Notes: generated by a model not told the origin, from the letters alone. 32,000 nt of DNA from Candidatus Thorarchaeota archaeon (GCA_003345555.1 PRDJ01000033.1:1-32000), one strand, 5' to 3'; shown: positions 3,129 through 24,903, counted from the first letter of the stretch. Translations and numbers: made by a program.

Positions 3129-3236
3129 TGGACTCGCGTCAAGATAGTCACGCCGTCATGGACACCGGACCTGACTCCGCATACTGTGATCAAAGGCCGA
3201 TGAAACGATAGAAAACCCGGAACCAGACGTTTCGAC

Positions 3237-3569: not shown

Positions 3570-3786
3570 CCAAATACCTTGACCTGAACAGATTACAAAT
3601 GCGGATTTATCCTCTATGTATTTCCCGGCCTGTGGTCTCCCCGCCATGTCAAGCTCCGACCGGAGGCTTCGCTTCATGCGACGGTTGCTCCCTTAGCATG
3701 TCCGCAAAGGCTTAACGGGAAATACGATTGATTGAAGCAGTGATACGCCCAAGTGGTGTATTCCACAACTAGTGGTGCTAGGCAGT

Positions 3787-4494: not shown

Positions 4495-4555
4495 CAATAA
4501 TCGTGAATCGGGATTCCGAACTTATTTTGCAGCCATTCATAATGCTGAATAGACC

Positions 4556-5461: not shown

Positions 5462-5599
5462 CAGCTGCTTGACCCCGTGTTCGGCTCGGACTTCGGCGCC
5501 ACCTTTGTCACTCCATGGCTAAATCGATAATGAGATTCGGAGCGCCACAGGCAATCTATTAGGGAGAGCCTGTAGCGTTACGAAGATAAGGAGACTCCT

Positions 5600-6025: not shown

Positions 6026-6040
6026 CTGATTAGATTGGGT

Positions 6041-7504
6041 ATGAGTGTTCTCGGCGGCGAGGACCATTTAGACCCAACTGCCCATTGGGCAGAAAGGGAG
6101 CTTGCGAACATGGGCTTGAGAGCGAAGGTGAGCTATGCTTCAGGAAACTTGGGAGCATCTCTACTCTACAACGCCTTCGCGACATTTGCATTGACCTTCT
6201 ACGTTGACAAGAAATACATCGGACTTGATGGAGTCCTGTACGGGATGGCAATCGCCATATACGGTGTATGGAACGCGATTAACGATCCTCTTTTCGGGGT
6301 CCTCTCAGACAGAACACGTACTAGGTGGGGGAGAAGAAGGCCTTACATATTCATAGGTGCAATCTTCCTCTTCGTGACATACTTGCTGGTCTGGACTCCT
6401 CCGGTGACAGGGCTTCCACTAGCTGAACCATTCAATATCCCGATATTCATCTACTTCCTTCTCACCATAATCGCATTCGACGGGTTCTACACGCTGGTCA
6501 GTGTCCCTTACGTTTCCATGTTTCCGGAGCTCTATGAAAGTCCAAAGGACAGATCACAGGTTCAGCTCTTCAGACAGTTGTTTGCAGCCTTGGGTCTCAT
6601 ACTCGCTTTCACGATGCCAATGATGATTGAAACTCTGTCAAGGACAATGACAGTATACGATGCTTACAAGTACGTGGGCCTAGCCCTTGGCGTGGTGGGA
6701 TCAGTTCCTTTCATAATCTCCGTAATCTGGAACAAGGAAAGAAAGGAACTAAGCCTAGAGACAAATCCTTCACTTGGGCCAACTCTGAAGACCACGTTAG
6801 GGAATAGGACGTTCCTCATATTCGCCGTGGCCTACCTAATGATACAGTATGCCTTTCTGTGGATGCAGAGCATGCTGGAGTTTTTCTCAACTAACATCCT
6901 CGGTATAGGAAAAGGCGACGTGACGATCTTGTTGCTGGCCATGTTCGTCTCAGCGCTGCCATTTCTTGCGGTGTGGGCCGCAGCTTACAGGAAATACGGG
7001 ACTAGGAAATGCTTCATCGCGACCATGTCTGTCTTCGCGATTTCACTCCAGCCGTTTCTGTTTGTATCGGGCCTCACTCAGGTTTTGCCCATAATGTTCG
7101 TTGCTGGCGTTGGCCTCTCAGGATACATGATGCTGCCTGAAGTAATGGTGAGCGAGATTATTGATGAAGACGAGGTCAAGTCAGGGATCAGAAGAGAAGG
7201 AGTATACTTCGGAATGAATGGCTTTCTCGGGAGATTTGGATTCGTACTAAGCGGATTGACAGCCGCGTTCTTCTTTGGACTGACCGGATATCAGGGTGGT
7301 ACTCCGCCGACACCAGAAGTCAGTCTGATATTCAGGCTGGCCATGACGACAATCCCGCTGATGGCCATGGGGCTCGCACTTGTCTGTCTGAAGTACTACC
7401 CGCTTCACGGGGAAAGACTAGATGCAGTAAGAAAAGCAATGGACAAGATGCACATGGAAAAGGCAGAGCGTCTGGAGGCAGCCCCTAAAGAAGAGAAGCT
7501 ATGA
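6041..7504 (+). CDS. MFS transporter, glycoside-pentoside-hexuronide (GPH/MelB-like) family
   Basis: WNAINDPLFGVLSDRTRTRWGRRRPYI signature, D-G-x-Y-T-x-x-x-VPY, C-terminal D-E-D-E-x-x-SG-x-RREG-x-YFG; about 12 TMs. Alternative starts at 6035 (TTG) and 6110 (ATG). Confidence 0.92.
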   Translation: MSVLGGEDHLDPTAHWAERELANMGLRAKVSYASGNLGASLLYNAFATFALTFYVDKKYIGLDGVLYGMAIAIYGVWNAINDPLFGVLSDRTRTRWGRRRPYIFIGAIFLFVTYLLVWTPPVTGLPLAEPFNIPIFIYFLLTIIAFDGFYTLVSVPYVSMFPELYESPKDRSQVQLFRQLFAALGLILAFTMPMMIETLSRTMTVYDAYKYVGLALGVVGSVPFIISVIWNKERKELSLETNPSLGPTLKTTLGNRTFLIFAVAYLMIQYAFLWMQSMLEFFSTNILGIGKGDVTILLLAMFVSALPFLAVWAAAYRKYGTRKCFIATMSVFAISLQPFLFVSGLTQVLPIMFVAGVGLSGYMMLPEVMVSEIIDEDEVKSGIRREGVYFGMNGFLGRFGFVLSGLTAAFFFGLTGYQGGTPPTPEVSLIFRLAMTTIPLMAMGLALVCLKYYPLHGERLDAVRKAMDKMHMEKAERLEAAPKEEKL

Positions 7505-8167
7505 GGATTGTTCCTCAATGCATCTAGGTCCCTCATTCGAGGGGTTGTTCACAAACGAGGATACACTAAAGACCTCCATGTCAATGGATGGATATGAATC
7601 AAGCAATGCCTTCAGTACTGACGAATCAACCTTCTCCTTTGTCAGCCACATATCGTACTCATCGCGCGAAAGAATTACTGGCATTCTGTTGTGAATCTTA
7701 GAAAGCAATTCGTTCGGCACGGTTGTGACAATCGTTGCACTCGCATTCACCTCAGCCGTTGGTGACTCCCAGAGGTCATACAACCCTGCAAATGCAAACG
7801 GCTCCCGCGACTTCAGGCGTACAAAGTAGGGAGTCTTGTTCCCGACCTTGCCCTTCCATTCATAGAATCCATCTGTTGGAATCAGGCATCTTCGATTCTT
7901 GAAAGAGTGGCGGTAGGTTGGCTTGACCTCGATTGTCTCAGCTCGTGCATTGATTGTACTGAAATCCGACGCAGGTTCCTTCGTCCAAAAAGGAATCAGA
8001 CCCCAACGCATCTCCACGAGCTTGCGTACATCATTCTGAATAATCACTGCGATTTCTTGTTCCGGCGCGACATTGTAACGCGGCTTCAGCTCTGCCATGA
8101 CCTGCCCTATTCCGAACTTGGCGACTAATATGCCAGCAGGGCTGAATAGACCAAACCGACCACACAT
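7499..8167 (-). CDS. SOS response-associated peptidase (SRAP; HMCES/YedK family) abasic-site DNA-protein crosslinker
   Basis: N-terminal MCGRF (catalytic Cys2), RYNVAP, INARAET, RRCLIP-x-DGFYEW, IHNRMPVIL, and C-terminal VNNPSNEGP. Confidence 0.95.
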   Translation of the reverse strand: MCGRFGLFSPAGILVAKFGIGQVMAELKPRYNVAPEQEIAVIIQNDVRKLVEMRWGLIPFWTKEPASDFSTINARAETIEVKPTYRHSFKNRRCLIPTDGFYEWKGKVGNKTPYFVRLKSREPFAFAGLYDLWESPTAEVNASATIVTTVPNELLSKIHNRMPVILSRDEYDMWLTKEKVDSSVLKALLDSYPSIDMEVFSVSSFVNNPSNEGPRCIEEQSS

Positions 8168-8250
8168 AATAAGCGGTTAATCCCTGTTCACAAAAGGCTT
8201 CGGTTGTGGCAGAGGTGTTAAGCAAGACGACCCGAGTGCTTGGCCTCTGA

Positions 8251-8265
8251 CAGAAAGATTATATC
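8251..8265 (+). promoter_or_regulatory. Putative BRE-TATA promoter of the first hdrA-like gene
   Basis: CAGAAAGATTATATC about 50 nt upstream of ATG 8317, in the divergent SRAP/hdrA intergenic region. Confidence 0.55.
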
Positions 8266-8316
8266 GACTCTCAGGGTGTCGACCTCGACACAACCGTAGC
8301 TCGGAGATCTCTATTG

Positions 8317-11300
8317 ATGGTCACTAAGACGACCAAGAAAAAAGCGCCCAAGGCAAGACCCAAGATGACGGAAAAAGCGCCTTCGAAGATAACTGATGTC
8401 TTGGTCATTGGTGCAGGCATGGCAGGCATCAACGCTTCGCTTGATCTCGCTAAAGGTGGACACCATGTTCACTTGGTAGAAAAGAATGTGAATATTGGCG
8501 GCAACTATGTCGCCGTCTACAAGATATTCCCTATGCTGGAGTGCTCTGCTTGTGTCATGACGCCCCTGACTTCTTACGTAGGAAAGCATCCGAACATCAC
8601 AACCTATGCCTTGTCCACAGTGGAGAAAGTATCGGGGACCAAGGGCAATTTCAGCGTAACTATTCGAAAACAGGCTCGTTACGTTGATGAAAAGAAGTGC
8701 ACAGGATGTGGATTGTGCACGCAGAACTGTCCGGTGGAGGTTCCAAACGAGTATGACTTTGGTCTGAGCTTGCGAAAGGCGATCTACTTTAACTTCAGGC
8801 AGCAGGTCCCGCTCATTGCACGCATAGACAAGAAGTCTTGCATCGGTTGTGGCACCTGCGCGGGAGTCTGCCCTCAGGACTGCATCAGATATGATGATGA
8901 AGACAAACTCTATACCTTCAAGGTTGGGTCAATCATTGTTGCTACCGGATTTCAAGAATACAAGCCATATGACTATGGCGAGTACGGCTATGGTGTGTAT
9001 CCGAATGTTGTCACGAGTCTAGAATATGACCGAATGAGCCACCCCACCGGGCCAACTGACTCCCATATGGTGCGTCCGTCGGATGGCAGGGAGCCGGAGA
9101 AGGTCCTCTTCGTTAATTGTGTGGGAAGCAGGGATGTCAGAGAGAACATCAGCGGATATAGTCAGCACTGCAACAGGGTCTGCTGTTCGTTTGGTCTCAA
9201 GCTCGCACAAGTCACGCGAATGCACTATCCCGCAGAGCATTGTGAGATCATATACACCTACATGGACATGCGAACAGCCGGAAAGGCACTCGAGGAGTTC
9301 CTGTGGGACAGTCAAAAGAATCAAGGTATCAAATTCATTCGAGGCAGAGTTGCGGAGATTTCTGAAGACTTCGATACACACGACCTGTTCGTGAAACTCG
9401 AGGACACAGAAACCGGTAAGATCATCGAACTGAAAGGTATCTCACTTGTCGTCCTCAATGCGAGCTTTAGACCGAACGACGGAGTCGAGGAACTGGCGAA
9501 GCTCCTCAAGATTGACATCAGCGACACTGGGTGGCTGAAGGAGAAGCATCCGAATACAGCAGCGCTTGAAACCGACAAGCCGGGCATCTTCATTGCGGGC
9601 TGTGATCATGGCCCGAGAGACGGTACTGACACCGTCAACGAAGGAAAAGGTGCCGCCATGGCTGCCCATTCGATTCTGCCAATTCCAGAAGTCGCACCAA
9701 TTGAGGTAATACCCCCGCTTGAAGAGGGGGTTGAGCCCAGAGTTGGCGTATTCATCTGCCACTGTGGTGGTATCATAGGCAATATGATTAGTTCTCCGGG
9801 TCTTGCCGAATGGTCGCGGGATCTTCCCAATGTTGTCTTTGCGACCGACTACATATTCATGTGTAGTGATCCGGGGCAGCAGAAGATTGTGGACGCGATT
9901 GAGGAACACAAGCTGAATCGCGTTGTTGTAGGTTCGTGCTCTCCGCTTCAGCATCAGGAGACTTTCAGAAACGCACTTGAGAGAGCAGGTCTGTCAAGGT
10001 ACTACTTTGTCGGTCCCGTGGGCCTGAGGGAGCAGCTGGCCTTGGTAAATGCAAGAGCCACAGCAGAGGAGCGTCAGGAAAAGGCGCAGGATATGATTCG
10101 AAGTGCCGTGGCCAAAGCCGTGAATAATGAAGCCGTTCCGATGAAATCTGTTGAGGTTGTTCGCACGGCCATGGTTGTTGGTGGAGGAGTATCTGGCATG
10201 ACAGCTGCCCTCGACATCGCTAGGAAGGGCTTCAACGTCGTCCTTGTTGAGAAGACGGACAAGCTCGGCGGACGACTTAACGAGTTGCATCATATCTTCC
10301 CCAAGATGGAGTCGGCGAAGGATATTGTTGAGGACTTGAAGACGCGTGTCGGTCAGGAGAAGAGGATCCAGGTACTCTTGAACTCGAGACCGATTGGTCG
10401 TGAGGGCACATATGGGAACTACGACGTGATACTCGAGAACATCGCGACCCATGAAAAGAAGACCGTCAAGGTTGGCTCGATGCTTCTTACTGTGGGAACT
10501 GACACTTATGAACCCAAGAATGGTGAGTACGGATTCGGAGTCGTTCCTGCAGTCATCACGACACTCGATTTGGAGAAGAAGCTCAGAAACGGGGAACTCA
10601 AGACCCCCCCAAAGAACCCCGTCTTCATCCACTGCGTGGGTTCAAGGCAGACGCCGGGCGAGGGAAATAGATACTGCTCACGAGTTTGCTGCTCGGCTCT
10701 AGTGGCTATGCAACACGAGCTCAAAGAGATGTTTCCGGATGTGAGAATCTTCTCTGCGTTCAAGGAACACATCCGTCCATTCGCGAGCGGGATGGAAGAG
10801 ATGTGGCGCGAAAACAGGCAGAATGGAATTACATACATCCGATGGGTACGCGAGAGACCACTGACGGTCGAAAAGGCTGGGGATTCAGATGAGGCCATAA
10901 TCACTGTCTATGACACTCTTTCACAACAGACACTGAAGATAAGGTCAGACTTGGTCGTTCTCGCAGTGGGGCTTGAAGCTCCACATGATGTAGCCGACCT
11001 AGTGAAGGCCATGGGCATTAACCGCGGTCAAGACGGATTCCTCCGAGAAATGCACATGAAGTTCAGACCGGTCGAGACGACAGTGCCCGGAGTATTCCTC
11101 GGCACGACTTACGCCAAGAACGTATCCGACTCAATCAACCAAGCAAGGGCCGCAGCAAGTGAGGCATGTATTCCGCTCAACCTGGGGACGGTACAAATCG
11201 AGCTGCTTACGGCAGAAGTGGACGAAGACCTATGCGTGGGTTGTGACCTGTGCCACTTCTCTGAAATCTGTCCGTATGATGCCATCACTATGATGGAGGT

Positions 11301-11451
11301 CTCGCCGGGAGTAAAGAAGAGCGTGACAGACGACGTGAAGTGCCATGGATGCGGCGCATGTGCCGCGATTTGCCCCACGGGTGCTCGAGACTTACGCTGG
11401 TGGCGTGAGAAGAGCTACATGGAAGAGATTGAGGCAATGCTCGCCAGCTAG
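8317..11451 (+). CDS. hdrA: Large heterodisulfide reductase subunit A-like flavoprotein with two FAD modules and no MvhD domain
   Basis: Two GxGxxG FAD motifs (IGAGMAG, VGGGVSG). Inserted 2x[4Fe-4S] ferredoxin (CTGCGLCTQNCP, CIGCGTCAGVCP) in module 1. CVGSR...C-x-x-x-CC cluster motif in both modules. HdrA N-terminal domain (PRVGVFICHCGG...FMCS...GSCSP) located internally from about 9736. C-terminal ferredoxin (CVGCDLCHFSEICP, CHGCGACAAICP). Confidence 0.92.
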   Translation: MVTKTTKKKAPKARPKMTEKAPSKITDVLVIGAGMAGINASLDLAKGGHHVHLVEKNVNIGGNYVAVYKIFPMLECSACVMTPLTSYVGKHPNITTYALSTVEKVSGTKGNFSVTIRKQARYVDEKKCTGCGLCTQNCPVEVPNEYDFGLSLRKAIYFNFRQQVPLIARIDKKSCIGCGTCAGVCPQDCIRYDDEDKLYTFKVGSIIVATGFQEYKPYDYGEYGYGVYPNVVTSLEYDRMSHPTGPTDSHMVRPSDGREPEKVLFVNCVGSRDVRENISGYSQHCNRVCCSFGLKLAQVTRMHYPAEHCEIIYTYMDMRTAGKALEEFLWDSQKNQGIKFIRGRVAEISEDFDTHDLFVKLEDTETGKIIELKGISLVVLNASFRPNDGVEELAKLLKIDISDTGWLKEKHPNTAALETDKPGIFIAGCDHGPRDGTDTVNEGKGAAMAAHSILPIPEVAPIEVIPPLEEGVEPRVGVFICHCGGIIGNMISSPGLAEWSRDLPNVVFATDYIFMCSDPGQQKIVDAIEEHKLNRVVVGSCSPLQHQETFRNALERAGLSRYYFVGPVGLREQLALVNARATAEERQEKAQDMIRSAVAKAVNNEAVPMKSVEVVRTAMVVGGGVSGMTAALDIARKGFNVVLVEKTDKLGGRLNELHHIFPKMESAKDIVEDLKTRVGQEKRIQVLLNSRPIGREGTYGNYDVILENIATHEKKTVKVGSMLLTVGTDTYEPKNGEYGFGVVPAVITTLDLEKKLRNGELKTPPKNPVFIHCVGSRQTPGEGNRYCSRVCCSALVAMQHELKEMFPDVRIFSAFKEHIRPFASGMEEMWRENRQNGITYIRWVRERPLTVEKAGDSDEAIITVYDTLSQQTLKIRSDLVVLAVGLEAPHDVADLVKAMGINRGQDGFLREMHMKFRPVETTVPGVFLGTTYAKNVSDSINQARAAASEACIPLNLGTVQIELLTAEVDEDLCVGCDLCHFSEICPYDAITMMEVSPGVKKSVTDDVKCHGCGACAAICPTGARDLRWWREKSYMEEIEAMLAS

Positions 11452-11537
11452 ACCTGCCAGAAGCATCAGAGTCTCTGACAAATGTGCAAGACCAATGAAG
11501 CTGTGGCTGCCATCAATCAGCTCGGAGATGGGTTTCC

Positions 11538-11563
11538 AGTGTGTTCCGAGTCCCGGACACACT
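11538..11563. terminator. Possible hairpin between convergent genes
   Basis: AGTGTGT(T)CCG-AGTCC-CGGACACACT: 10-bp stem with one bulge, touching the stop codon of the small minus-strand gene. Function is not demonstrated. Confidence 0.25.
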
Positions 11564-11744
11564 AGGACTTTCTAAAGCGATAGAGGGCTACGAGGTTCAG
11601 CACAATTGACATCCCAATCAGGACCCCGATTAGGAAGTCTATGATGCCATCTCCTATGACAAACCGATCCATTAACACTGCAATTGAAAGGCATGTGCAC
11701 CCGACAGGCGCCAACCATCTATCCTTCAACAGAACCACGCGCAA
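11562..11744 (-). CDS. Small two-TM membrane protein (about 60 aa)
   Basis: Two clean hydrophobic helices (LAPVGCTCLSIAVLM; IIDFLIGVLIGMSIVLNLVALY) and a basic tail RFRKS. It fills an otherwise empty gap, with an AT-rich GAAGTTATTTAAC about 30 nt upstream. Confidence 0.6.
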   Translation of the reverse strand: MRVVLLKDRWLAPVGCTCLSIAVLMDRFVIGDGIIDFLIGVLIGMSIVLNLVALYRFRKS

Positions 11745-12017
11745 AGCACCATACTCCAGAATGCGCCTAATGTTAAATAACTTCTCGACAAAGCAATCCG
11801 ATGACTAGCAGGCAAAGTGTTGCCAGTGCTGGCTGAAGCCCGCAATTCATAATGGATATAGGACGACCATCCACATTACAGGATACCCAAGAACAGCTCT
11901 CGGATCCGCGGGTAAAACTCCGGAAAGGTTCCCTCTGTTCACAGGTCGCATGAGCAGACTGATATGATAAGATGAATTCCGTGGATAGATTGAAACGCTC
12001 TGTAGGGGGTTTGTGAG

Positions 12018-12590
12018 ATGGTATCGGCTGATAGCATGCTGGCAGGCTGGATGGTTTTGAATGATTTGCTTGGTGACCTGAAGAGCCGAGGCGTGTTCAT
12101 ACCAGACCTCACCTATGCAGACCTGCGAAATAGCAAGATGGTCATTGAATATCTTCGGGCATTTGAGCGTGAGATTGCCTCTATCGATCAGCAAGACGTG
12201 GAGCTGAGGTCCGAAATGGAGACAAGGATGCTCCGTCTGAAGGAAACCTTGATGATTTGGGCCGAGCAAAATGGCGGTGAGGGAGTTCGGCGTACATGGG
12301 AAAGGCGCTTCAACGATGCAATCCAAGGGAAGGGTCAAAAGATTCCCCCTGAGCCTAAGACCCGGATTTCGGATCTCCCAAGAGAGAAGGACGTTGCTTT
12401 CTTTCGGATAAGGTTACCAGATGAGATTCCAGTGGAGATTGTCTCAGAACTGGCAGAGGATTGCCGTGTCCATATATCACTGGACGGTGACCGCCATCTA
12501 CAAGTAAGTGGCAAGAAGGAATGCGTCCGTGATGCGATGAAGCGGCTCGGTGAGATATTCTACGGGGAAGACCGGACAGTATCGAAGTAG
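12018..12590 (+). CDS. DUF2096-like conserved archaeal protein
   Basis: Recognised by eye from the pattern W-x-VL-x-DLL-x-DL-x-x-RG...DLR-x-x-K-x-x-I...W-x-x-R...LPR...F-x-RI-x-LP...E-x-x-E...V-x-G-x-KE-x-V-x-x-A-x-K. GGGGGT RBS upstream. Family assignment needs an HMM check. Confidence 0.7.
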   Translation: MVSADSMLAGWMVLNDLLGDLKSRGVFIPDLTYADLRNSKMVIEYLRAFEREIASIDQQDVELRSEMETRMLRLKETLMIWAEQNGGEGVRRTWERRFNDAIQGKGQKIPPEPKTRISDLPREKDVAFFRIRLPDEIPVEIVSELAEDCRVHISLDGDRHLQVSGKKECVRDAMKRLGEIFYGEDRTVSK

Positions 12591-12604
12591 AACAATAGTC
12601 CAGT

Positions 12605-13480
12605 CTACAATCCGAGAATGTCGGCTATCGGGTCGAGTGGCACCCTGTTCAGTCTGAGCCCGAGAGCGTCTACATCAATACCCATTGCGGCACCGAGCAC
12701 CTGTGTTACGAACAATGCAGGCAGCTCAAACGATTCCCCCTTGTCGCCCTTCATGCCAATGGCTTGGATATCGAACTGCGTGTGGCATGCTGGGCAGTTT
12801 GTCACAATGCAGTTAGCGCCAGCGTCCTTCGCTGAGATCATCTTCTCCTTTAGAATCCGTGATGCAACACTCTCACTCGCTATAAGCAATGGCGAACCAC
12901 AGCATCTGAGTTTCAAGCCCCAAGGTAGGCTCTTAGCCCCGGTCAGTTCGATTAGCTCATCGACTTTGCGTGGAAGCTCAGGGTCATCAAAACCAGCCAC
13001 TTTCGAAGGCCGGAGCAAATGACAGCCCGGGTGGAATGCTACAGATAGCCCATTCAGTGGTCGGACAATCTTACCCTTGATCTCATCCTTCAAATCGTAG
13101 AGGACCTCAACGAAATGTCGAATTGTAGCCTTGCCCGTGAATTGCAGTCCCTGAGAAGATAGGGCCTTGTTTGTAGCCTTTCGAGCAGCATCATTATTGT
13201 GAAGAACATGAGAGCAGTCCTTGAGAGAGCCGAAGCAGCCGTTGCACGGTGTGACTATATTGTGGCCGCGCTTTTCAGCAAGAGCGATGTTCCTTCCTGA
13301 AATTGCGAGCCAGCTGGGTTCATCGATTGACTTTAGAACAACCGTGCCGCAGCACGAAGCACCTTCAAAGTCCAAGAGCTCGACGTCGAGCTCTTTTGCG
13401 ACAGCACGCATAGATGCTTCATAGTAGTTGAATCTTGAGGGAATTGCGCAGCCCAGGAATACCTCATACGTTTGGGTCAT
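12605..13480 (-). CDS. hdrB: Heterodisulfide reductase subunit B (CCG-domain protein), divergent copy
   Basis: All ten Cys plus the His of the two CCG domains are present: FLGC, SCCG, PCNGC, PGCH, RCCG, NCPAC. ATG 13480 overlaps the hdrC stop (TGATG). Confidence 0.93.
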   Translation of the reverse strand: MTQTYEVFLGCAIPSRFNYYEASMRAVAKELDVELLDFEGASCCGTVVLKSIDEPSWLAISGRNIALAEKRGHNIVTPCNGCFGSLKDCSHVLHNNDAARKATNKALSSQGLQFTGKATIRHFVEVLYDLKDEIKGKIVRPLNGLSVAFHPGCHLLRPSKVAGFDDPELPRKVDELIELTGAKSLPWGLKLRCCGSPLLIASESVASRILKEKMISAKDAGANCIVTNCPACHTQFDIQAIGMKGDKGESFELPALFVTQVLGAAMGIDVDALGLRLNRVPLDPIADILGL

Positions 13481-13998
13481 CACTCACCCTCCTGCAATCT
13501 CATCAGACCCGTCTTGCCAAGCACCTTGCGGGTCTCGGCCACATCAAGATGCGGGACAGGAGGAAGAGCCAAGTCGTCGCGCTCCCAATCTGTCGGTTCG
13601 TAAAGCTTTCCATTATCGTACAGGGCCTTTCGTGATGTCACATAGCCCGGTGGTGTTATGCCCTTGCGAAATGCCATGTTCTTGAGGCCAAAGATTATGT
13701 CAGTTATCTCGATTCCCTGAGGACAACGCTGCTGGCATTGATAACACGTAGTGCAGAGCCAGACCATGTCCGTGTCAAGGACTTCCCTGAAACCGAACAA
13801 GAGCATCCTCATCAACTCGTGGACTTGGATGTTCACTTTGTCAGAGACAGGGCACCCTGCGCTGCACTTTGCGCACTGAAAACACGCGGTCAGGTCCTGC
13901 CCACCAATCAGCTTTGAGACCTCCTTCGTGAATTCAGCATCAAGTGCCTCGAACTTCTTGCCTTCGAAGGACTTCAGCTGACCCCAGTTCTCTGCCAT
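13480..13998 (-). CDS. hdrC: Heterodisulfide reductase subunit C (2x[4Fe-4S])
   Basis: CFQCAKCSAGCP and WLCTTCYQCQQRCPQ motifs; lies between hdrA and hdrB. Confidence 0.93.
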   Translation of the reverse strand: MAENWGQLKSFEGKKFEALDAEFTKEVSKLIGGQDLTACFQCAKCSAGCPVSDKVNIQVHELMRMLLFGFREVLDTDMVWLCTTCYQCQQRCPQGIEITDIIFGLKNMAFRKGITPPGYVTSRKALYDNGKLYEPTDWERDDLALPPVPHLDVAETRKVLGKTGLMRLQEGE

Positions 13999-14002
13999 TG
14001 AT

Positions 14003-17000
14003 TCATTTCCTCCTTGGTCTCAGAGGACTCGGTCCCAACTTGTCAGCGAGCTCAGAGAGCTTCCGCACTGTGTCAGCCCAGATTGAGCCCTCGCTTGCAC
14101 TAATGTGAGTGAACTGGAGCCGCTCGGTCTCAAGTCCCGCTTTCTCTAGTATCTTCTTCGCAATTGCGAATCTTCTCTCGAAGGTGATATTACCATCGAC
14201 ATAGTGACAGTCGCCTGTGTGACAACCGGATATCCAAACCATGTCTGCTCCGAGCCTGAATGCTTCAAGGATGTGAGTGACACTAATGCGTCCGGTGCAC
14301 ATGACACGTATGTCTCGAACGTTGGTCGGCTGTTGAAACCTCGAGACACCCGCATTATCGGCCCCGGCGTAGCTGCACCAGTTGCACACTATTGTTAGAA
14401 TGCGTGATTGGTTTGCGGGCATGTCTTCGAGCGCCGCACGAATCTGAGAGAGTATCTGATCGTCAGTGAAGTGCTTCATTGTGATAGCACCAGTGGGGCA
14501 TCCGGCGGCACACTTTCCACAGCCCGCACAGAGCACGGGATTCGATACAGCATAGTCGTGACCGCCTTGGCCCGGAACAACCTCTATTGCATTGTAGGCA
14601 CAATTGATTTCGCACGTGCCGCAGCCTACGCAGACCTCGGGATCCACAACAGAAACTATCGCCTCGGCCTTCCGAACACCCGTCACTAAAGGTACAAGTG
14701 CGCGAGCAGCCGCACCTCTTCCCTGTGCAATGGATTCATCGATTGACTTGGGTGCTGTTGCAGTCCCGGCCACATAGACACCATCTGTCTGGAAGTCCAC
14801 CGGTCTCAGCTTCGGGTGTGCTTCCATGAAAAACCCAGACATGTTCAGCGGGACCTTGAATAGCTCTGAGATTTGCTTGTTGGTCTCCCGCGGAACCATC
14901 GCTGTTGCTAACACAACGTGATCAACATCAAGCCCTAGCTTCGCTCCGAGTATCTGGTCAGTGACTTCTACCCTGAGGGGCCTGTTCTTCCCCTTCTTTA
15001 CCTCTGGAGGCGAGTCCTTGTCGAATCTGATGAAAACAACACCTTTCTTCCGAGCTTCGCGGTACCTGTCCTCTGCTGTGTAGGATACTCTCAGGTCCCT
15101 GTACAGATGGAATACCCGCGAATTGGGATACTTCTCGAGGAGCTCAAGAGTATGCTCAAGAGCAACAGTGCAGCAGATTCCCGAACACCAAGTTCGCGAC
15201 CCTTCAAGAGACTCATCTTGGCGGGAACCAGCACAGTGGATTACAGCGAAAGTCTCTCCATCTTGGAATGCGTCGTCTTGTGCGAGCCGCTGATTCAGCT
15301 CAAGCTCTGTAGTGACATCGGGGAACTTCTGGAGGCCGTAGAGGCCCTTCTCCTCCAGCTGGACTGCCCCCGTTGCAACGACGACAACCCCGACCTTCAG
15401 TTCCCGCTTCTGCTTCTTGCTTGTCATGACCGTTACTTCAAAATCACCAATCGATCCTTTGGCATCCGTAACCTCCGAGTTTAGCATTAGCTCGATGTTA
15501 GAGTTGCCCTTGACCATTCGTTCGTGTTGTCCCACAATGTCTAGGGCAGGTGTGAAATCGAAGTTGACCGTGTGCAGCTGGCTCAATAGGCCGCCGACCT
15601 TGTCTTCCCTCTCTACAAGATATGTCTTGAACCCCTTGTCAGCTATCAGTTCTGCAGCTGACATTCCGGCCACACCAGCTCCGATTACGAGAACCGCAGG
15701 CTCAACTTTCGTGGCTGCCTCTTCTTCAGGCTCGAGCAGTCTGGACTTGGCTACAGCCATTCGGACAAGATCCATGGCTTTCGCGGTGGCTTCATCTTTG
15801 GCACCTTGGTGTATCCATGAACAATGCTCACGTATGTTAGCCATTTCAAAAAGATACTTGTTGAGCCCAGCTTCTTCGGTTGTCGCTCTGAATAGGGGCT
15901 CGTGGGTTCTCGGTGTGCAGGAGGCTACAACAACACGATTGAGCTTGTGTTCCTTGATTGCATCCTTGATGACGACTTGAGCATCTGATGAACAGGAATA
16001 AAGCAGATTCTGAGCATGAACGACATTAGGCAGCGAGCCTGCATAGCGAGTAACTTCTGCAACGTCCACTGTTCCGGCAATATTGACACCACAAGAACAA
16101 ACAAAGACGCCGATGCGGGGTTCTCCTGTTGCGAGTTCGGTGATGGTCTGTGTCGCCGCCTCAAGCTCAGGCGCCTTGGGGATGACTATATCAAGCGCTG
16201 CCAGTGCGGCAGCAGCGCTTCCCTGAGCGACTGAGTCAGGAATATCCTTAGGGCCATTCACTGTCCCACACATGTGAATTCCCGGGACACCGGTCTGGAC
16301 ACTTTCAACACGACCGGCCATGCCCTCCAAGTAGCCGTAGCTATCAATCTGAACACCGAGCTTCTGAAACAGATCTTGATTCTCGTTATGGACCATGGCC
16401 GGGCATAGGATGACTAAGTCGTAGCGATCCTGTAGAATCTCACGTCCTTTCATATCACTATGCCTGACAAGCAGGTCTCTGCTATCGCGGTCTTCGATGA
16501 TTTCGCTGGGGAGACCCTTCACATAATTGATGCCATATTCCTTCTCGCCCCGCACGAGGAATTCCTCGAAGCCCTTACCAAAGGCACGCATGTCATTGTA
16601 CAGAATGTCAATGTGGACCTCGGGCATATGCTCCTTCGTTATGATTGCCTCTTTCGTGGCATATGTGCAACATATCCTTGAACAGTAAGGACAATGGTTC
16701 ACATCACGTGAACCCACACACTGAACGAACGCAATTCGATGAGGTTCTCGACCATCGGAGGGACGCATGATGACTCCCCCGGTGGGTCCGCTCGCAGAGA
16801 CCATTCTCTCATACTCAAGACTTGTGACAACATTCGGGTACCGTCCGTAGCCCAGTTCCGGCACGGTGGATGCGTCGAGAAGCCTGTAGCCAGTTGCAAC
16901 AATGATTGAGCCAGCATTGATCTCAACCGTCTCATCCGGGCGTTCAAAATCGATTGCTTGGGCCTTGCAGCCATTCGCACAGGTCATGCACTGAATGCAG

Positions 17001-17467
17001 TTCTCGATGTCGATAGTCGCAATGTTGGGTACAGCCTGTGGGAATGGGATGTAGGCTGCTTTTCTCATCTTTAGGCCAAGGTCGTACTCGTTCGGAACCT
17101 CGATTGGACACACTCTCTGGCAATCGCCACAGCCAGTACACTTGTTCGAATCCACACGGCGTGTATGCTTCAGGACCTTCACTGTGAAGTCGCCCTGATT
17201 ACCTGATACCTCTGTGACCTCAGAATAGGCCAGAATCGTGATATTGGGATTTCGTGAGCAATCGACCATCCATGGCCCCATGATGCACATCGAACAATCT
17301 AGGGTCGGGAACGTCTTGTCGAGCTGAGCCATGTGTCCACCGATGGATGGCTGCCTCTCGACCATGTACACCCTAACGCCCATTCCGGCTAGGTCTAATG
17401 CAGCACGGATACCAGCGATTCCCGCGCCTATGATAACTACAGGTCTTGTTGAGGTCTCTGCCATCAT
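14003..17467 (-). CDS. hdrA: Large heterodisulfide reductase subunit A with two FAD modules fused to a C-terminal MvhD ([2Fe-2S]) domain
   Basis: Module 1 is canonical (IGAGIAG, GGHMAQLDKTFPTLDCSMC, inserted ferredoxin, CVGSRD...CSRICC, GPKDIPDSVAQ). Internal HdrA N-terminal domain (RIGVFVCSCG...YSCS...ASCTP). Second FAD module (IGAGVAG), C-terminal ferredoxin (CVGCGTCEINC, CAGCGKCAAGCP). MvhD from about 14405 (CNWCSYAGAD, RVMCTGR, GCHTGDCHY). Confidence 0.95.
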   Translation of the reverse strand: MMAETSTRPVVIIGAGIAGIRAALDLAGMGVRVYMVERQPSIGGHMAQLDKTFPTLDCSMCIMGPWMVDCSRNPNITILAYSEVTEVSGNQGDFTVKVLKHTRRVDSNKCTGCGDCQRVCPIEVPNEYDLGLKMRKAAYIPFPQAVPNIATIDIENCIQCMTCANGCKAQAIDFERPDETVEINAGSIIVATGYRLLDASTVPELGYGRYPNVVTSLEYERMVSASGPTGGVIMRPSDGREPHRIAFVQCVGSRDVNHCPYCSRICCTYATKEAIITKEHMPEVHIDILYNDMRAFGKGFEEFLVRGEKEYGINYVKGLPSEIIEDRDSRDLLVRHSDMKGREILQDRYDLVILCPAMVHNENQDLFQKLGVQIDSYGYLEGMAGRVESVQTGVPGIHMCGTVNGPKDIPDSVAQGSAAAALAALDIVIPKAPELEAATQTITELATGEPRIGVFVCSCGVNIAGTVDVAEVTRYAGSLPNVVHAQNLLYSCSSDAQVVIKDAIKEHKLNRVVVASCTPRTHEPLFRATTEEAGLNKYLFEMANIREHCSWIHQGAKDEATAKAMDLVRMAVAKSRLLEPEEEAATKVEPAVLVIGAGVAGMSAAELIADKGFKTYLVEREDKVGGLLSQLHTVNFDFTPALDIVGQHERMVKGNSNIELMLNSEVTDAKGSIGDFEVTVMTSKKQKRELKVGVVVVATGAVQLEEKGLYGLQKFPDVTTELELNQRLAQDDAFQDGETFAVIHCAGSRQDESLEGSRTWCSGICCTVALEHTLELLEKYPNSRVFHLYRDLRVSYTAEDRYREARKKGVVFIRFDKDSPPEVKKGKNRPLRVEVTDQILGAKLGLDVDHVVLATAMVPRETNKQISELFKVPLNMSGFFMEAHPKLRPVDFQTDGVYVAGTATAPKSIDESIAQGRGAAARALVPLVTGVRKAEAIVSVVDPEVCVGCGTCEINCAYNAIEVVPGQGGHDYAVSNPVLCAGCGKCAAGCPTGAITMKHFTDDQILSQIRAALEDMPANQSRILTIVCNWCSYAGADNAGVSRFQQPTNVRDIRVMCTGRISVTHILEAFRLGADMVWISGCHTGDCHYVDGNITFERRFAIAKKILEKAGLETERLQFTHISASEGSIWADTVRKLSELADKLGPSPLRPRRK

Positions 17468-17509
17468 TTGTCCCTTTAGGGGTGATATGTAGCGGCCTCA
17501 TGGTTGGAC

Positions 17510-17525
17510 GATAAAACGTTTGTTC
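17510..17525 (-). promoter_or_regulatory. Putative BRE-TATA promoter of hdrA(mvhD)-hdrC-hdrB
   Basis: Minus strand reads GAACAAACGTTTTATC about 45 nt upstream of ATG 17467; purine-rich AAAGGGA just before the start. Confidence 0.45.
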
Positions 17526-17540
17526 TAGCGGAGATTCTTT

Positions 17541-18440
17541 TCACGTTGTGCCAAGACTCAGAATCATGTCTTTCAGATTCTTCACAATCCTGAGTGCATC
17601 ATCCCAGTCACGCTGCCAGAGGTTCCTGCCGAAAATCAAACCTGCAGCTCCTTCTTGTAAGCACACCCTTGCCTTGTGGAGGATTTCGTCATCATCAATC
17701 TTACCCCCGCCTGAGAAGAGCACGAGAGTCTTGCCAGCTGAATGTATCACCTTCCTCACGCGTTCATCATAGCTCAGGTTCAATGAGTCGTAGGGTTTCG
17801 GTTGTAGAGACCTTGTTTTTGGATCATCATTGGGAACGTTGATCTTGACTAGGTCTGCTCCAAGCTCACTTGCCACGCGAGCTGCGTAGTCGACTGCATA
17901 TAGAGAATCGCGTCCGCCCTTCGAATCTACCGCTGCTCCTCTTGGGTATGCCCACATGACGATTGGCATACCATAACGGTCAGCATCAGCTTTGACTTTC
18001 CTGAATTGGTTGAAATCTTCAACCTGCCTTGGACTACCCACAAAAAGAGTGTACCCCACAGCATCTGCACCGATTCTGACCGCGTCTTCAACCGAGGCCG
18101 TCATGGGTGAGACAGGGTAACCCTCGCTAGGAATGCTCGTCTTACCATTGAGCTTGAGGATAATCGGGACCTTGCCGGCATACTTCGATGCATACTTCTC
18201 GGCCAGACCCAAGTGAAGCGCAACTCCTGACAGACCGCCCTCAAGAGCGAGCCTGAACTGAAACGTGGGGTCCTCAGAGGGGGGATTCGGGAGGAAGTCT
18301 ATCGGACCGTGCTCGAGCCCTTGGTCAATTGGCATTATGAGCATATGCCCGTTGCCCGGACCGTGCTCATACATGAGTCGATGTAGCCTGATTCTCTTCC
18401 CGAGGCTGAGGTAGTCCATGTCGTCCAGCCAGTTCTTCAA
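17541..18440 (-). CDS. fba: Class IA (archaeal-type/DhnA family) fructose-1,6-bisphosphate aldolase
   Basis: DQGLEHGP-x-DF, ILKLNGKT, SVEDAV-x-x-GADAVGYT, WAYPRG (Trp/Tyr motif as in Thermoproteus FBA), Schiff-base Lys in GADLVKI, SGG and GRNLWQ. Start TTG 18440 or ATG 18419. Confidence 0.9.
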   Translation of the reverse strand: MKNWLDDMDYLSLGKRIRLHRLMYEHGPGNGHMLIMPIDQGLEHGPIDFLPNPPSEDPTFQFRLALEGGLSGVALHLGLAEKYASKYAGKVPIILKLNGKTSIPSEGYPVSPMTASVEDAVRIGADAVGYTLFVGSPRQVEDFNQFRKVKADADRYGMPIVMWAYPRGAAVDSKGGRDSLYAVDYAARVASELGADLVKINVPNDDPKTRSLQPKPYDSLNLSYDERVRKVIHSAGKTLVLFSGGGKIDDDEILHKARVCLQEGAAGLIFGRNLWQRDWDDALRIVKNLKDMILSLGTT

Positions 18441-18476
18441 AGCACGTAGACCTCGGTTTTACCAATGAAGCGGTCC

Positions 18477-18490
18477 TTCATAAACATTCT
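18477..18490 (-). promoter_or_regulatory. Putative BRE-TATA promoter of the aldolase gene
   Basis: Minus strand reads AGAATGTTTATGAA, overlapping the hdrB stop codon, about 40 nt upstream of the fba start. Confidence 0.5.
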
Positions 18491-19433
18491 AGGCCGTTGC
18501 CTTTGCCTTGGCCCTGAGGTTGAGCCGCTCCCAATTAGGCTCGGTCTTCCTCTGCGAATACTGTAGATGGTTGGCGAGCCCGAATTCATCCGGCTCATGG
18601 CCAAAAGCGAGTGCTAGCAGCTCAGATACGTGCATGATATCGAACTTGTACTCGACTCCGAAGAGTTTCTGGATCTCTACTTGGCCCGTGTCAAGCTGAA
18701 GCAAACAGAACGGGCACGGGGTCACAATAACATCGGCACCACCTGCAGCCGCAATGCTGTCGAATTTCTGCTTCGTGAAGTCGAGAGAAGTCTTGAGATC
18801 TGCAGTCCTTACCGCGCCACCGGCGCCACAGCAAATCAGCTCATCCTTGTAGTGGACGTACTTGGCACCGCTAGTTTCGCAGATTTCCCTGAATATGTGA
18901 GGCCGCTCGCTATCGTCTTTCTTCTTTACTAGTTTCGGTCTCATCCAGTGACATCCAGGATGAAGGGCCATTCTGACTCCATTCAGTGGGCGCGTGACAT
19001 GCTCCTTAACCTTCTGAGTACCAACAACGTCGTGGAGCACATCGAGGTAGTGTGTCACCTCGATTGTGCCTTTGAACTCACGCCCGATATCAGCTAGGTT
19101 GCGGTTCACGGCAGCCCTAAGCTCCTCGTCTTCCTTCAACTCATGGTTTGAGTCCCACAAGCTGGCGAAGCAACCGTTGCACCCAGTTGTAATGGGGTGG
19201 CCACCTTGCTCTGCAATAGTCAGATTTCGAGCAGCAATGGTAGCCCACGTGACTCTGTCAAATGAACCGAACACGCCCGGAGCAGGACAACAGCTCGCCC
19301 CAACCATGTCAAGCAAGTCTATACCTAAGTCGTTGAAGACGAGTTTCGTTGCTTTCTCGATGCTCGGATATCGATGCGGAATAATGCAGCCCAGAAAATG
19401 ATAGTATGCAGGTCGCTTCGACAAGCCGTTCAC
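18489..19433 (-). CDS. hdrB: Heterodisulfide reductase subunit B, methanogen-like copy
   Basis: FLGCIIPHRYPSIE, GASCCPAPGVFGSFD, GCNGC, PGCH, CCGAGGAVR, PCPFC. GTG start overlaps the hdrC stop (GTGA). Confidence 0.95.
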   Translation of the reverse strand: MNGLSKRPAYYHFLGCIIPHRYPSIEKATKLVFNDLGIDLLDMVGASCCPAPGVFGSFDRVTWATIAARNLTIAEQGGHPITTGCNGCFASLWDSNHELKEDEELRAAVNRNLADIGREFKGTIEVTHYLDVLHDVVGTQKVKEHVTRPLNGVRMALHPGCHWMRPKLVKKKDDSERPHIFREICETSGAKYVHYKDELICCGAGGAVRTADLKTSLDFTKQKFDSIAAAGGADVIVTPCPFCLLQLDTGQVEIQKLFGVEYKFDIMHVSELLALAFGHEPDEFGLANHLQYSQRKTEPNWERLNLRAKAKATA

Positions 19434-19999
19434 TTCTCCTTCTTTTCCGCAGCGGGTGGTTCCTCAGTATAACCAATCAGTTTGTCAAATCCGCTCTTCT
19501 TGGCTATCTTGCGAATCTCCTGCGCCACCTTCGGACTCGACGACCCATTTGGAGGCAATGGTTCGAGACCGGATTTCTTCCTCAGTTCGGACCACGTATC
19601 CTTGTCAAGAGGCACAGCATGTCCGGACTCCATCACTTTCTTTGCTGTGTCCTGATGTGACTTGAGCATGTGTCCCTCTGCGACGGCGACGTTTCTGATT
19701 GCCTTGATGACATCGGTTGGCTTCACATCTTGCGGACAACGATCCGTGCACATGTAGCAGGTGGTACAGTACCAAAGCTCAGGAGCGGTGATGACCTCGT
19801 TCTTCAGGCCAAGCAGAGCCTTCCTTATGATTCCTCTCACAAGATAGTTAGTGCGGGCTCCCGCGGGGCAAGATCCAGAGCAAGTGCCACATTGGTAGCA
19901 GCTTTGGATGTTTGGTCCGCCGGCCTTCTTGATCATTTCGATGAATTCAAGGTCCACCTCGTCAACGTCAACCGGGGGTCTTTCTTCAACAATTGTCAA
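19430..19999 (-). CDS. hdrC: Heterodisulfide reductase subunit C
   Basis: CYQCGTCSGSCP, WYCTTCYMCTDRCPQ, GHAVP. TTG at 19999, preceded by CAGGTG, is preferred over the track start at 20029. Confidence 0.93.
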   Translation of the reverse strand: MTIVEERPPVDVDEVDLEFIEMIKKAGGPNIQSCYQCGTCSGSCPAGARTNYLVRGIIRKALLGLKNEVITAPELWYCTTCYMCTDRCPQDVKPTDVIKAIRNVAVAEGHMLKSHQDTAKKVMESGHAVPLDKDTWSELRKKSGLEPLPPNGSSSPKVAQEIRKIAKKSGFDKLIGYTEEPPAAEKKEK

Positions 20000-20132
20000 G
20001 TTCGGGCACCTGAGCGTTCGGACCAGCAAATGGTTCGGCCTTTTATCCGTTGCTTCATGGCTACTGTTATTATGCGTTCGTTATGTGGCACAACGGAAAG
20101 GTTGAATCGAACGAGTGGAATAGAGGATCGGA

Positions 20133-23461: not shown

Positions 23462-24013
23462 ATGGGAGAGATCATTCGGGAAACCATTTCAGCTGGCGAT
23501 ATGGACCCAACATTCATAGAGAAGATCGAAAAGGCTGGTGCAGATAGGATACGAACTTGCCTATCCTGTGGGACCTGCTCAAGTGTTTGCCCCTCTGGTC
23601 GTCGTACAGCTTTCAGAACGCGTGAGCTTATCCGTAAAGCCTTGCTCGGCCTCAGAGAAGACGTTCTGAGTTCTCCAGACCTTTGGTTATGTGCCACATG
23701 TCTTACTTGCTTGGAGCGCTGTCCGAGACAAATCAAGATCACAGATGCAATCATAATCATGAGAAACATGGCTGTCAAGGAAGGATTCATGCTTCCTCAG
23801 CATCGAAAGTCCGCTCAGAAGCTGCTTCAGACAGGACATGCAGTACCATTGGATGATGCAAACCGGGACATGCGAAGGGAACTGGGTATCCCAGAGATAC
23901 CTCCCACAGTGCACTCAAGCGAGGAAGCACTCGCACAGGTCAAGGAGATAATGAGACTCACGGGGTTCGATACCCTTGTAGAAGGAGAAGGAACAGGGGC
24001 CAAGCAGGAATGA
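23462..24013 (+). CDS. hdrC: Heterodisulfide reductase subunit C
   Basis: CLSCGTCSSVCPSGR, WLCATCLTCLERCPR, TGHAVP. Confidence 0.93.
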   Translation: MGEIIRETISAGDMDPTFIEKIEKAGADRIRTCLSCGTCSSVCPSGRRTAFRTRELIRKALLGLREDVLSSPDLWLCATCLTCLERCPRQIKITDAIIIMRNMAVKEGFMLPQHRKSAQKLLQTGHAVPLDDANRDMRRELGIPEIPPTVHSSEEALAQVKEIMRLTGFDTLVEGEGTGAKQE

Positions 24014-24903
24014 CAGACCCTCAAACTTACTCATTGTTCCTCGGATGTGTGATGCCAAATCGCTATCCTAATGTCGAGAAAAGCATCAGAGTTGTACTTC
24101 CAGCACTCGGTATAGAGCTGGAGGAGCTGGAGGGAGCAAGTTGTTGCCCTGCACCGGGCGTCATAAGATCATTTAGCGAGCGGACATGGCTCGCGCTCGC
24201 ATCTCGCAACCTTGCATTGGCGGAAAGAGCGGGTCACGATATCATCACGGGATGCAATGGCTGCTATGGAACCTTCAAAGAAGCGCTCAATATAGTGCAC
24301 GAGAAACCCGACCGGCTCAAGGATGTCCAGCAGATCCTCAAGAGCGTTGGACTGAAGTACGAGGCAGGTGTCGACGCAAAACACCTCATCGAGGTTATCT
24401 ACAGCATTGGGATTGACCCTCTGCGAAAGAAGATTACGCGCCCCCTCACAGGCTTGAAGGTCGGCGTACACTATGGATGTCATCTTCTGAGGCCAAGCAA
24501 GCTGAGACCTTGGCACCAAATTCAGAAGCAGACATTCCTCGATGAGCTCGTCGAAGTGACGGGAGCCGAGAGCGTCAAGTACAAGGACAAGTTCCTCTGC
24601 TGTGGCGCCGGAGGTGGAGTACGTGGCTCCAATGTCCCTGTCAGCATAGACATTGCCCGAGAGAAACTTGATAATATGATGGAAGCAGGAGCTGATTGCA
24701 TAGTCGATGTTTGTTCGTTCTGCCATCTTCAGTTCGAGGTTTGTCAGGCTGAACTCAACAAGGAACTAGGGGAGAACAAGTATCACCTACCCGTGATATA
24801 TTACACCCAGCTCTTGGGATTGTCGATGGGGTTTGAACCTCAGGATCTCGGGCTTCACAAACATGTTGTCAGCACTCAGGCGCTTCTGGATCGCTTCCTT
24901 TGA
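24010..24903 (+). CDS. hdrB: Heterodisulfide reductase subunit B, methanogen-like copy
   Basis: FLGCVMPNRYPNVE, GASCCPAPG, GCNGC, YGCH, CCGAGGGVR, VCSFC. ATGA overlap with hdrC. Confidence 0.95.
   Translation: MTDPQTYSLFLGCVMPNRYPNVEKSIRVVLPALGIELEELEGASCCPAPGVIRSFSERTWLALASRNLALAERAGHDIITGCNGCYGTFKEALNIVHEKPDRLKDVQQILKSVGLKYEAGVDAKHLIEVIYSIGIDPLRKKITRPLTGLKVGVHYGCHLLRPSKLRPWHQIQKQTFLDELVEVTGAESVKYKDKFLCCGAGGGVRGSNVPVSIDIAREKLDNMMEAGADCIVDVCSFCHLQFEVCQAELNKELGENKYHLPVIYYTQLLGLSMGFEPQDLGLHKHVVSTQALLDRFL

Follow-up and report, generated by a model that had tools for sequence, protein, structure and literature searches.

Two large genes in a 32,000-nucleotide stretch of the genome of a Candidatus Thorarchaeota archaeon (GCA_003345555.1, PRDJ01000033.1:1-32000; this whole stretch is called the window) encode proteins in which two HdrA-like units are joined in one chain. 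The open reading frame (ORF) calls delimit P0001, an hdrA-hdrA fusion without MvhD (1045 aa, 8314..11451, plus strand), and P0002, an hdrA-hdrA-mvhD fusion (1154 aa, 14003..17467, minus strand). In our view the product of each gene is likely to be a type II HdrA, namely a self-heterodimer with one electron circuit, in which the flavin adenine dinucleotide (FAD) of the first unit (module 1) is bifurcating and that of the second unit (module 2) is non-bifurcating. The flavin sites of module 1 and module 2 are non-equivalent, and this asymmetry is real and systematic among homologues. The fused complementary HdrA design is widespread and already described; P0001 and P0002 are good examples of it, not a discovery, and they open no new kind of system. 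The local addition is a family-conserved change of the module-2 lysine to glutamate or to a small residue in two Thorarchaeota families. Fused HdrA enzymes are probably central to the way in which Asgard archaea balance ferredoxin, hydrogen and a thiol/disulfide couple, and this redox balance bears on syntrophy models of eukaryote origins.

Complementary modules in two fused HdrA proteins

In methanogen HdrA, the N-terminal cluster of one protomer is completed by the partner's Cys197, and this cluster lies on the low-potential branch (PMC9012536). Lys409 is located at N5 of the FAD, positioned by Glu356 (PMC6405883, PMC13514486, PMC12054007), and the mobile N-terminal domain controls entry to the FAD jointly with VhuD (PMC13518236). 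An earlier note on this DNA, made from the sequence alone, had given as background the donation of a cysteine to the partner's cluster and the Glu/Lys pair at the FAD, and the literature bears out both.

Fused complementary HdrA proteins (HdrA3/HdrA4) were described in anaerobic methanotrophic (ANME) archaea in 2022 (PMC9012536). A survey from 2024 found double-HdrA fusions, often with MvhD, in 16 of 18 Thorarchaeota and 9 of 10 Lokiarchaeota assemblies (PMC11237513). In a 2025 study the class was named type II; it comprises classes A3/A4, regarded as a fusion of the type I classes A6 and A12, and the N and C units were split for phylogeny and K409/E356 were tallied (PMC12054007). The layout, the Cys197 complementarity and the comparison of the two halves at E356/K409 had already been published, so that the earlier note's own condition for refutation, prior characterisation of the architecture, applies.

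The module layout was obtained from pairwise HMMER alignments to the solved HdrA chains 5odc_A, 8rvu_a and 9sfi_A, and a MAFFT alignment with the canonical 653-aa HdrA of the same genome gave the same picture. Each half of both proteins aligns to the TrxR core of 5odc_A. In both proteins module 1 runs from HdrA residue ~143 to ~566 and thus has neither the N-terminal domain nor the C-terminal ferredoxin; it retains the inserted 2x[4Fe-4S] ferredoxin and a D/ECSxC motif, the second Cys of which corresponds to 5ODC Cys197. Module 2 starts at HdrA residue 3 and contains the N-terminal domain with its Cys as well as the C-terminal ferredoxin, has no Cys at positions 194/197 and skips HdrA residues ~240-318, which form the inserted ferredoxin. 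These alignments confirmed the complementary tandem layout that had been read from the sequence in both proteins.

Module 1 of P0001 (residues 1-470; 8314..9723, plus strand) was aligned to 9sfi_A 128-561 and 5odc_A 146-567. It is a TrxR-like FAD domain with an ECSAC motif (C77/C80; nt 8539-8553, plus strand), the inserted 2x[4Fe-4S] ferredoxin at residues ~120-198 and a TrxR cluster of Cys269/286/290/291. Module 2 (residues 471-1045; 9724..11448, plus strand; aligned to 5odc_A 3-234 and 319-650) consists of an N-terminal Fe-S domain (C482/484/517/542), a TrxR-like domain and a C-terminal 2x[4Fe-4S] ferredoxin. In P0002, module 1 (residues 1-445; 16133..17467, minus strand) aligns to 5odc_A 143-566 with an unshifted register and harbours a DCSMC motif (C58/C61; nt 17285-17299, minus strand), the inserted ferredoxin (C110-C167) and the TrxR cluster C250/262/266/267. 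Its module 2 (residues 446-1020; 14408..16132, minus strand; aligned to 8rvu_a 10-243 and 322-656) contains the N-terminal Fe-S domain (C457/459/492/517), the TrxR cluster C745/761/765/766 and the C-terminal ferredoxin (C946-C990). It is followed by an MvhD/FlpD [2Fe-2S] adaptor (residues 1021-1154; 14006..14407, minus strand; PF02662), which matches 7bkb_F and 5odc_D and whose C1028/1031/1057/1082/1087 are invariant among homologues.

The Fe-S ligand cysteines are invariant in 107 full-length homologues of the P0002 family and 95 of the P0001 family, with the exception of C792 of P0001 (96%). From this layout and invariance, every accessory cluster site occurs once per chain, in agreement with the earlier note. 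Judged by these motifs, each chain should bind two FAD and seven [4Fe-4S] clusters, and P0002 should bind one [2Fe-2S] cluster in addition. Among related loci, many of them bacterial, 39 of 91 hits to the motif KTFPxxDCxx(C/U) (>30 loci) have an in-frame TGA at the Cys197 position, which fits the known HdrA selenocysteine at that site; both P0001 and P0002 have Cys, not TGA, at this position.

Both proteins have the features of type II HdrA, namely two TrxR-like FAD domains, an A6-like N unit and a C unit without Cys197, and their C unit additionally lacks the inserted ferredoxin. With type II HdrA and ANME HdrA3-HdrA4 they share the two TrxR domains, the complementary loss of the N-terminal domain and of Cys197, and N and C units that fall into separate clades; the idea of a self-heterodimer is stated in both PMC12054007 and PMC9012536. 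The module order stated in PMC9012536 is, however, reversed relative to that of P0001 and P0002. Compared with the canonical (HdrABC-MvhAGD)2 enzyme (5ODC, 8RVU, 7BKB), all domains and cofactor motifs are present, the predicted packing is homodimer-like and the TrxR core of module 1 shows 50-60% identity. The canonical homodimer contains two circuits that are equivalent, whereas P0001 and P0002 would have one circuit per chain.

Non-equivalent flavin sites

At the positions of 5ODC E356 and K409, P0002 has E220 (16808-16810) and K272 (16652-16654) in module 1, and N725 (15293-15295) and E771 (15155-15157) in module 2, all on the minus strand. In P0001, on the plus strand, D239 (9028-9030) and K296 (9199-9201) are found in module 1, and E754 (10573-10575) and A798 (10705-10707) in module 2. 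The four states E/K, N/E, D/K and E/A given in the earlier note are thus in register with 5ODC, all eight of its nucleotide coordinates fall on the right codons, and the alignment check for a shifted register showed that the register is unambiguous. The lysine of the bifurcating site is held by a Glu in module 1 of P0002 and, conservatively, by an Asp in module 1 of P0001; neither module 2 has such a pair.

We tallied these positions in three samples: the P0002 family (107 proteins), the P0001 family (95 proteins; 58 orthologues and 37 distant relatives) and species representatives of loci from many phyla (77 usable out of 80). In the P0002 family, module 1 has C/C/E/K in 107/107, while module 2 has E/K in 13/107. 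The 56 Thorarchaeota orthologues of P0002 all have E/K in module 1; in module 2 they carry N/S (or G) at position 356 and, in 47 cases, E at position 409. All 58 orthologues of P0001 have D/K in module 1 and E followed by A/T/S in module 2. In the distant relatives of P0001, E/K is found in module 1 of 37/37 and in module 2 of 31/37, and in the species representatives in 77/77 and 50/77, respectively. Over the 279 homologues together, every module 1 has a lysine with an acidic residue and 94 module-2 units have E/K. Moreover, C194/C197/K409 are present in module 1 of 107/107 and 95/95 proteins of the P0002 and P0001 families, and the E/K pair is absent from module 2 of both Thorarchaeota families (0/56 for P0002 and 0/58 for P0001). 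In the type II HdrA surveys, which concern methane- and alkane-metabolising archaea, K409/E356 were kept in 75%, in contrast to these two values of zero.

A rule for fused HdrA is apparent: the lysine and the acid are always present in the module that bears Cys197, and the pair is often lost from the module that bears the arm. The differences between the module flavin sites claimed in the earlier note are supported by these tallies. It had also counted only one of the four flavins as canonical, and this count does not hold, as both module-1 flavins have the N5 lysine with an acidic partner. Since the Glu-to-Asp exchange in P0001 is conservative and fixed (58/58), we count its module-1 flavin with that of P0002, and by their residues half of the four flavins, namely those of the two module-1 units, look bifurcation-type.

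Module 2 keeps its FAD motifs: GxGxxG and the other FAD-motif glycines are invariant, and its own four-Cys cluster is kept. Its TrxR domain is the least conserved folded domain, with a mean pairwise identity of 0.71 vs 0.77 among orthologues and 0.49 vs 0.59 among distant relatives. In the Asgard clade of the P0001 family the C-terminal FAD loop of module 2 is shorter owing to a 2-residue deletion. A special constraint on Glu771 was considered and dropped, as its conservation in the orthologues (84%) is not clearly above the background given by the mean identity of the domain (71%).

A close parallel is BamE of the class II benzoyl-CoA reductase, for which a cryo-EM structure of a fused HdrA dimer was reported (2026 preprint, 10.64898/2026.04.10.717634). 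The FAD of its TrxR1 (Lys280, Cys59-Cys62) bifurcates, whereas that of TrxR2 (Gln768) lies off the branching point and is regarded by the authors as structural (10.64898/2026.04.10.717634). Like P0002, BamE of Geobacter metallireducens is a fused dimer in one chain; its N-terminal TrxR has Cys59-Cys62 and Lys280 where P0002 has C58/C61 and K272, its second FAD is without the lysine (Gln768 vs E771 of P0002), and an MvhD-type adaptor feeds it. This equivalence of residues is taken from the numbering in the preprint and not from a sequence alignment. BamE differs in that it belongs to a tungsten aromatic-ring reductase, together with BamD, a HdrBC/HdrD-like fusion, and a separate, longer adaptor BamF; P0002 includes MvhD in its chain and is followed by separate genes for HdrC and HdrB. 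In the HdrA of Sporomusa ovata, too, E/K is kept in only one of two TrxR domains (Kremp et al. 2022, PMC9430772). That MetFV-HdrABC-MvhD enzyme likewise has two TrxR-like domains with E/K in one (E160/K216) and works with MvhD and HdrBC, but it is bacterial, part of a methylene-tetrahydrofolate reductase, and has fewer (five) Fe-S clusters; no metFV genes were found in the window.

The invariance of module 1 over about 280 sequences fits BamE better than the proposal of two bifurcation sites, and the comparative rule argues against type II HdrA generally having two such sites.

Predicted pairing of the modules and the proposed electron path

The whole 1154-residue P0002 was predicted by AlphaFold2 (AF2) with a predicted TM-score (pTM) of 0.88 and a mean predicted local distance difference test score (pLDDT) of 86.2, using an 82-row alignment; pLDDT fell below 50 only in the 436-441 linker, at the termini and in one MvhD loop. 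When the modules were given as separate chains (7-435 and 447-1010), the interface score ipSAE was 0.90, compared with 0.00 for the best control; the docking mark is one that 58/80 solved complexes and 2/110 mismatched pairs reach. Three runs shared at least 87% of contacts, with a partner pLDDT of at least 85. The docked interface places module-1 residues 57 and 61-68, the Cys197-equivalent stretch, against module-2 residues 490-497 and 521-525, which flank Cys492 and Cys517 of the N-terminal domain. In addition, helix 413-425 packs against helix 913-925 in a pseudo-twofold contact. As a prediction, P0002 thus shows the pairing of an HdrA homodimer, with the Cys pair of the first unit beside the N-terminal cluster of the second.

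The same genome also harbours the two units as separate genes. The genes run hdrC-hdrB-hdrA(448 aa, module-1 type)-hdrA(583 aa, module-2 type)-mvhD-mvhG-mvhA on contig C36 and hdrC-hdrB-hdrA(420 aa, module-1 type)-hdrA-MvhD(725 aa, module-2 type) on contig C50. In both split pairs the order of the modules is the same as within the fusions.

The C36 locus (6000-21000, minus strand) is a complete Mvh-Hdr operon with a split heterodimeric HdrA, in which the 448-aa protein has E/K and the 583-aa protein Q/K. Upstream of it lies a third HdrA of the module-1 type (916 aa), with a GltD/NfnB-like insertion of ~480 residues inside the inserted ferredoxin, followed by a gene for a 115-aa protein and hdrC. 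The C50 pair (35000-46000; plus strand 2654-7502) is very divergent, with long tree branches; in its 420-aa HdrA the E356 position is occupied by Ala and the inserted ferredoxin is shortened, and the 725-aa HdrA-MvhD has S/D.

A per-module phylogeny, one of the checks suggested in the earlier note, was calculated from 62 module sequences with IQ-TREE (maximum likelihood). The module-2 units formed one clade (100/97), and the module-1 units together with canonical HdrA formed another (99/93). The internal branching of the two clades is mirrored, and only the divergent C50 pair, with its long branches, falls outside. On this phylogeny the separate clades reflect an old heterodimer and not a recent tandem duplication. 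The whole-chain AF2 model, the module docking, the split pairs of the same order and the mirrored clades support reading each chain as an intramolecular heterodimer, as had been proposed from the sequence.

Beyond the domain layout, the residue mapping, the conservation asymmetry, the series of split and fused genes and the predicted packing, we infer the cofactor occupancy, the direction of electron flow, the donor and the disulfide substrate. A class-A6-like unit (module 1) would be fused to a class-A12-like unit (module 2), and the two would pack together like the two protomers of methanogen HdrA. Because the module parts are complementary, one of the two electron circuits of the homodimer would survive per chain. 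Module 2 would provide the single input and gating arm, made of the N-terminal Fe-S domain together with the C-terminal ferredoxin and, in P0002, the fused MvhD [2Fe-2S] cluster. The Cys pair of module 1 (C58/C61) would meet the N-terminal cluster of module 2, and module 1 would contribute the flavin with the N5 lysine and its acidic partner, a [4Fe-4S] cluster on the way to HdrC/HdrB, and the inserted ferredoxin, which hands on the low-potential electron. The FAD of module 1 would therefore be the bifurcating or confurcating flavin. The FAD domain of module 2, with FAD motifs and its own [4Fe-4S] site, would hold a flavin that has lost the lysine and has no arm; by analogy with BamE it is most likely a scaffold or a non-bifurcating unit. 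Together with HdrC/HdrB, P0002 may couple a mid-potential donor at MvhD to ferredoxin and a disulfide, or run in reverse. A candidate donor at MvhD is, for example, one of the Mvh-type [NiFe] hydrogenases of the genome, the genes of which are found elsewhere. McrA (PF02249) gave no match in this 93%-complete genome, and CoM-S-S-CoB is therefore unlikely as the substrate.

Several points weigh against this assignment of one working flavin per chain. The FAD-motif glycines are kept in module 2, its [4Fe-4S] site is invariant, and most Thorarchaeota orthologues (47/56) share Glu771, so that a redox role for the second flavin is conceivable. Module 2 also retains E/K in many non-Asgard type II proteins, and PMC12054007 takes the retained pair as two bifurcation sites. 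As for the pairing, the docking score may reflect memory of, or likeness to, the solved HdrA homodimer and would then not be an independent test, and the position of Cys61 near the N-terminal cluster is read from predicted lists of interface residues. Finally, P0001 carries no MvhD, and its operon and its strand contain no co-transcribed hdrBC.

If both flavins of a chain were catalytic, the second would either bifurcate as well or be tuned to a different partner, and its electrons would reach a second HdrBC by way of its own [4Fe-4S] cluster. Such a role would agree with the invariant FAD motifs and TrxR-domain cluster cysteines of module 2, with Glu771, with the three intact hdrCB pairs no more than 12 kb away from the fused hdrA genes and with the two bifurcation events proposed for type II HdrA (PMC12054007). 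We nevertheless regard it as unlikely: the N5 lysine is missing from module 2 in P0001, in P0002 and in 94/107 and 64/95 homologues, and the module-2 flavin is served by neither an N-terminal-domain cluster nor a Cys197, because module 1 is without the N-terminal domain and module 2 without the Cys pair. Furthermore, the second FAD of BamE is off the branching point with one BamD bound per BamE, and the extra hdrCB pairs do not lie beside the hdrA orthologues in the complete Thorarchaeota genome CP070761.1. The suggestion in the earlier note that the remaining flavins are tuned to different redox partners found no support, the second FAD of BamE being read as structural. For Thorarchaeota a narrower version can be formulated, in which the second flavin would be a non-bifurcating disulfide-reductase branch with an HdrBC of its own, giving two thiol/disulfide couples per pseudo-dimer. 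It is motivated by the family-wide replacement of the N5 lysine (by Glu, or by Ala/Thr/Ser), by the invariance of the [4Fe-4S] site of module 2 and by the presence of three HdrCB pairs close by, and we hold it to be rather improbable.

Pairing of module 1 with module 2 of another chain, resulting in a domain-swapped dimer or polymer, appears very unlikely to us. The linker between the modules is short (about 15-25 residues) and poorly conserved, and docking on separate chains is compatible with both arrangements and does not distinguish them; the single-chain AF2 model, on the other hand, places both modules with a pTM of 0.88, and in the BamE structure the fused dimer lies inside one subunit. 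P0001 could also be a paralogue devoid of redox function, either in decay or with a regulatory role only, in line with the deletion in its module-2 FAD loop, its transcription unit without hdrBC and mvhD and the Asp in place of Glu356. However, all 33 conserved Fe-S cysteines are present (32 invariant, C792 at 96%), the D/K state is identical in 58 orthologues of 73-96% identity, and CP070761.1 shows the same convergent position relative to the hdrA-mvhD-hdrCB operon, which makes either case extremely unlikely. The reading that we prefer for both proteins remains the self-heterodimer with a bifurcating module-1 FAD.

Gene calls, family matches and neighbouring genes

The P0001 gene has two possible starts, TTG at 8314 and ATG at 8317, of which the ATG is more likely because the closest homologue has 1044 aa. 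P0001 opens with a Lys-rich tail of ~25 residues (window 8314-8390), and its orthologues are mostly 1034 aa long; the true start may lie ~10 codons further in than annotated. The orthologues of P0001 (n=58, 73-96% identity) and of P0002 (n=56, 74-88% identity) are, where named, mostly from Thorarchaeota. Relatives covering the full length were found in at least 598 species genomes, including Asgard archaea, Bathyarchaeia, Thermoplasmata, Methanosarcina, Desulfobacterota, Chloroflexota, Planctomycetota and others.

In Pfam, each protein has two Pyr_redox_2/FAD_oxidored stretches and several 4Fe-4S ferredoxin motifs, and the C-terminal end of P0002 is an MvhD/FlpD domain (PF02662, E 1.5e-43). 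HdrA2 and HdrA are the best NCBIfam models for both proteins, and the match to each model falls into three stretches. The cut-offs of the canonical HdrA models NF041778/NF041891 (1400/1300) were reached by neither P0001 (671.5/631.3) nor P0002 (742.7/758.2). For the HdrA2 model NF040770 (cut-off 1100), P0001 scored 871.9; P0002 scored 1171.2, only through summing three stretches over two HdrA units, and its architecture differs from that of the model (HdrA-MvhD, type Ia), which has a single HdrA unit with MvhD. Among solved structures, the nearest relatives are HdrA chains from methanogens (5odc_A, E 1.9e-218), along with MvhD chains. A Foldseek search of a PDB copy without the BamE models returned single-unit HdrA chains only and no fused HdrA, the best being 5odc_A (TMt 0.78).

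Directly after P0002 follow hdrC (172 aa, 13480..13998, minus strand; Fer4_8/Fer4_17), 4 nt downstream of its stop codon, and hdrB (292 aa, 12605..13483, minus strand), which matches PF02754 twice and has two complete CCG motifs of the CCG/CxxC pattern. P0002 thus has a co-transcribed HdrC (2x[4Fe-4S]) and HdrB (two CCG). The same two genes follow the orthologue in CP070761.1, which shares the order hdrA-mvhD-hdrCB as well as the DUF2096 gene and a P0001 orthologue in convergent orientation.

A second hdrC-hdrB pair (199 + 314 aa, 18489..20029, minus strand) lies upstream of the P0002 hdrA on the same strand, with a DeoC-type aldolase gene (17541-18440) between them. Whether this pair belongs to the P0002 complex is uncertain, because it is not adjacent to the hdrA orthologue in CP070761.1. 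The third pair (183 + 297 aa, 23462..24903, plus strand) is 33-44% (HdrC) and 37-40% (HdrB) identical to the others. The three pairs lie within 12 kb, are 32-44% identical to each other, and both CCG motifs are present in all three HdrB proteins. The idea that two flanking HdrCB pairs mark two docking sites was downgraded, given the lack of adjacency in CP070761.1 and the single BamD bound by BamE. The DeoC aldolase was ruled out as a member of the system, as it is absent from the orthologous CP070761.1 locus.

The DUF2096 gene (window 12018-12590, plus strand; counterpart L004 14887-15450) is located between the two fused hdrA loci; in CP070761.1 it is found on the same strand, 10 bp after the P0001 orthologue. 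The 567-bp gap between P0001 and this gene in the window contains only short, unconvincing ORFs, and an Rfam scan of 7400-20500 gave no matches. At the far end of the window (26863-31998), the three genes of a 2-oxoacid:ferredoxin oxidoreductase (POR_N/PFOR_II, TPP_enzyme_C, POR) are convergent with genes for an activator ATPase of the BcrAD/BadFG type and for two HGD-D proteins (2-hydroxyacyl-CoA dehydratase-like), a ferredoxin-linked module that adjoins the Hdr genes.

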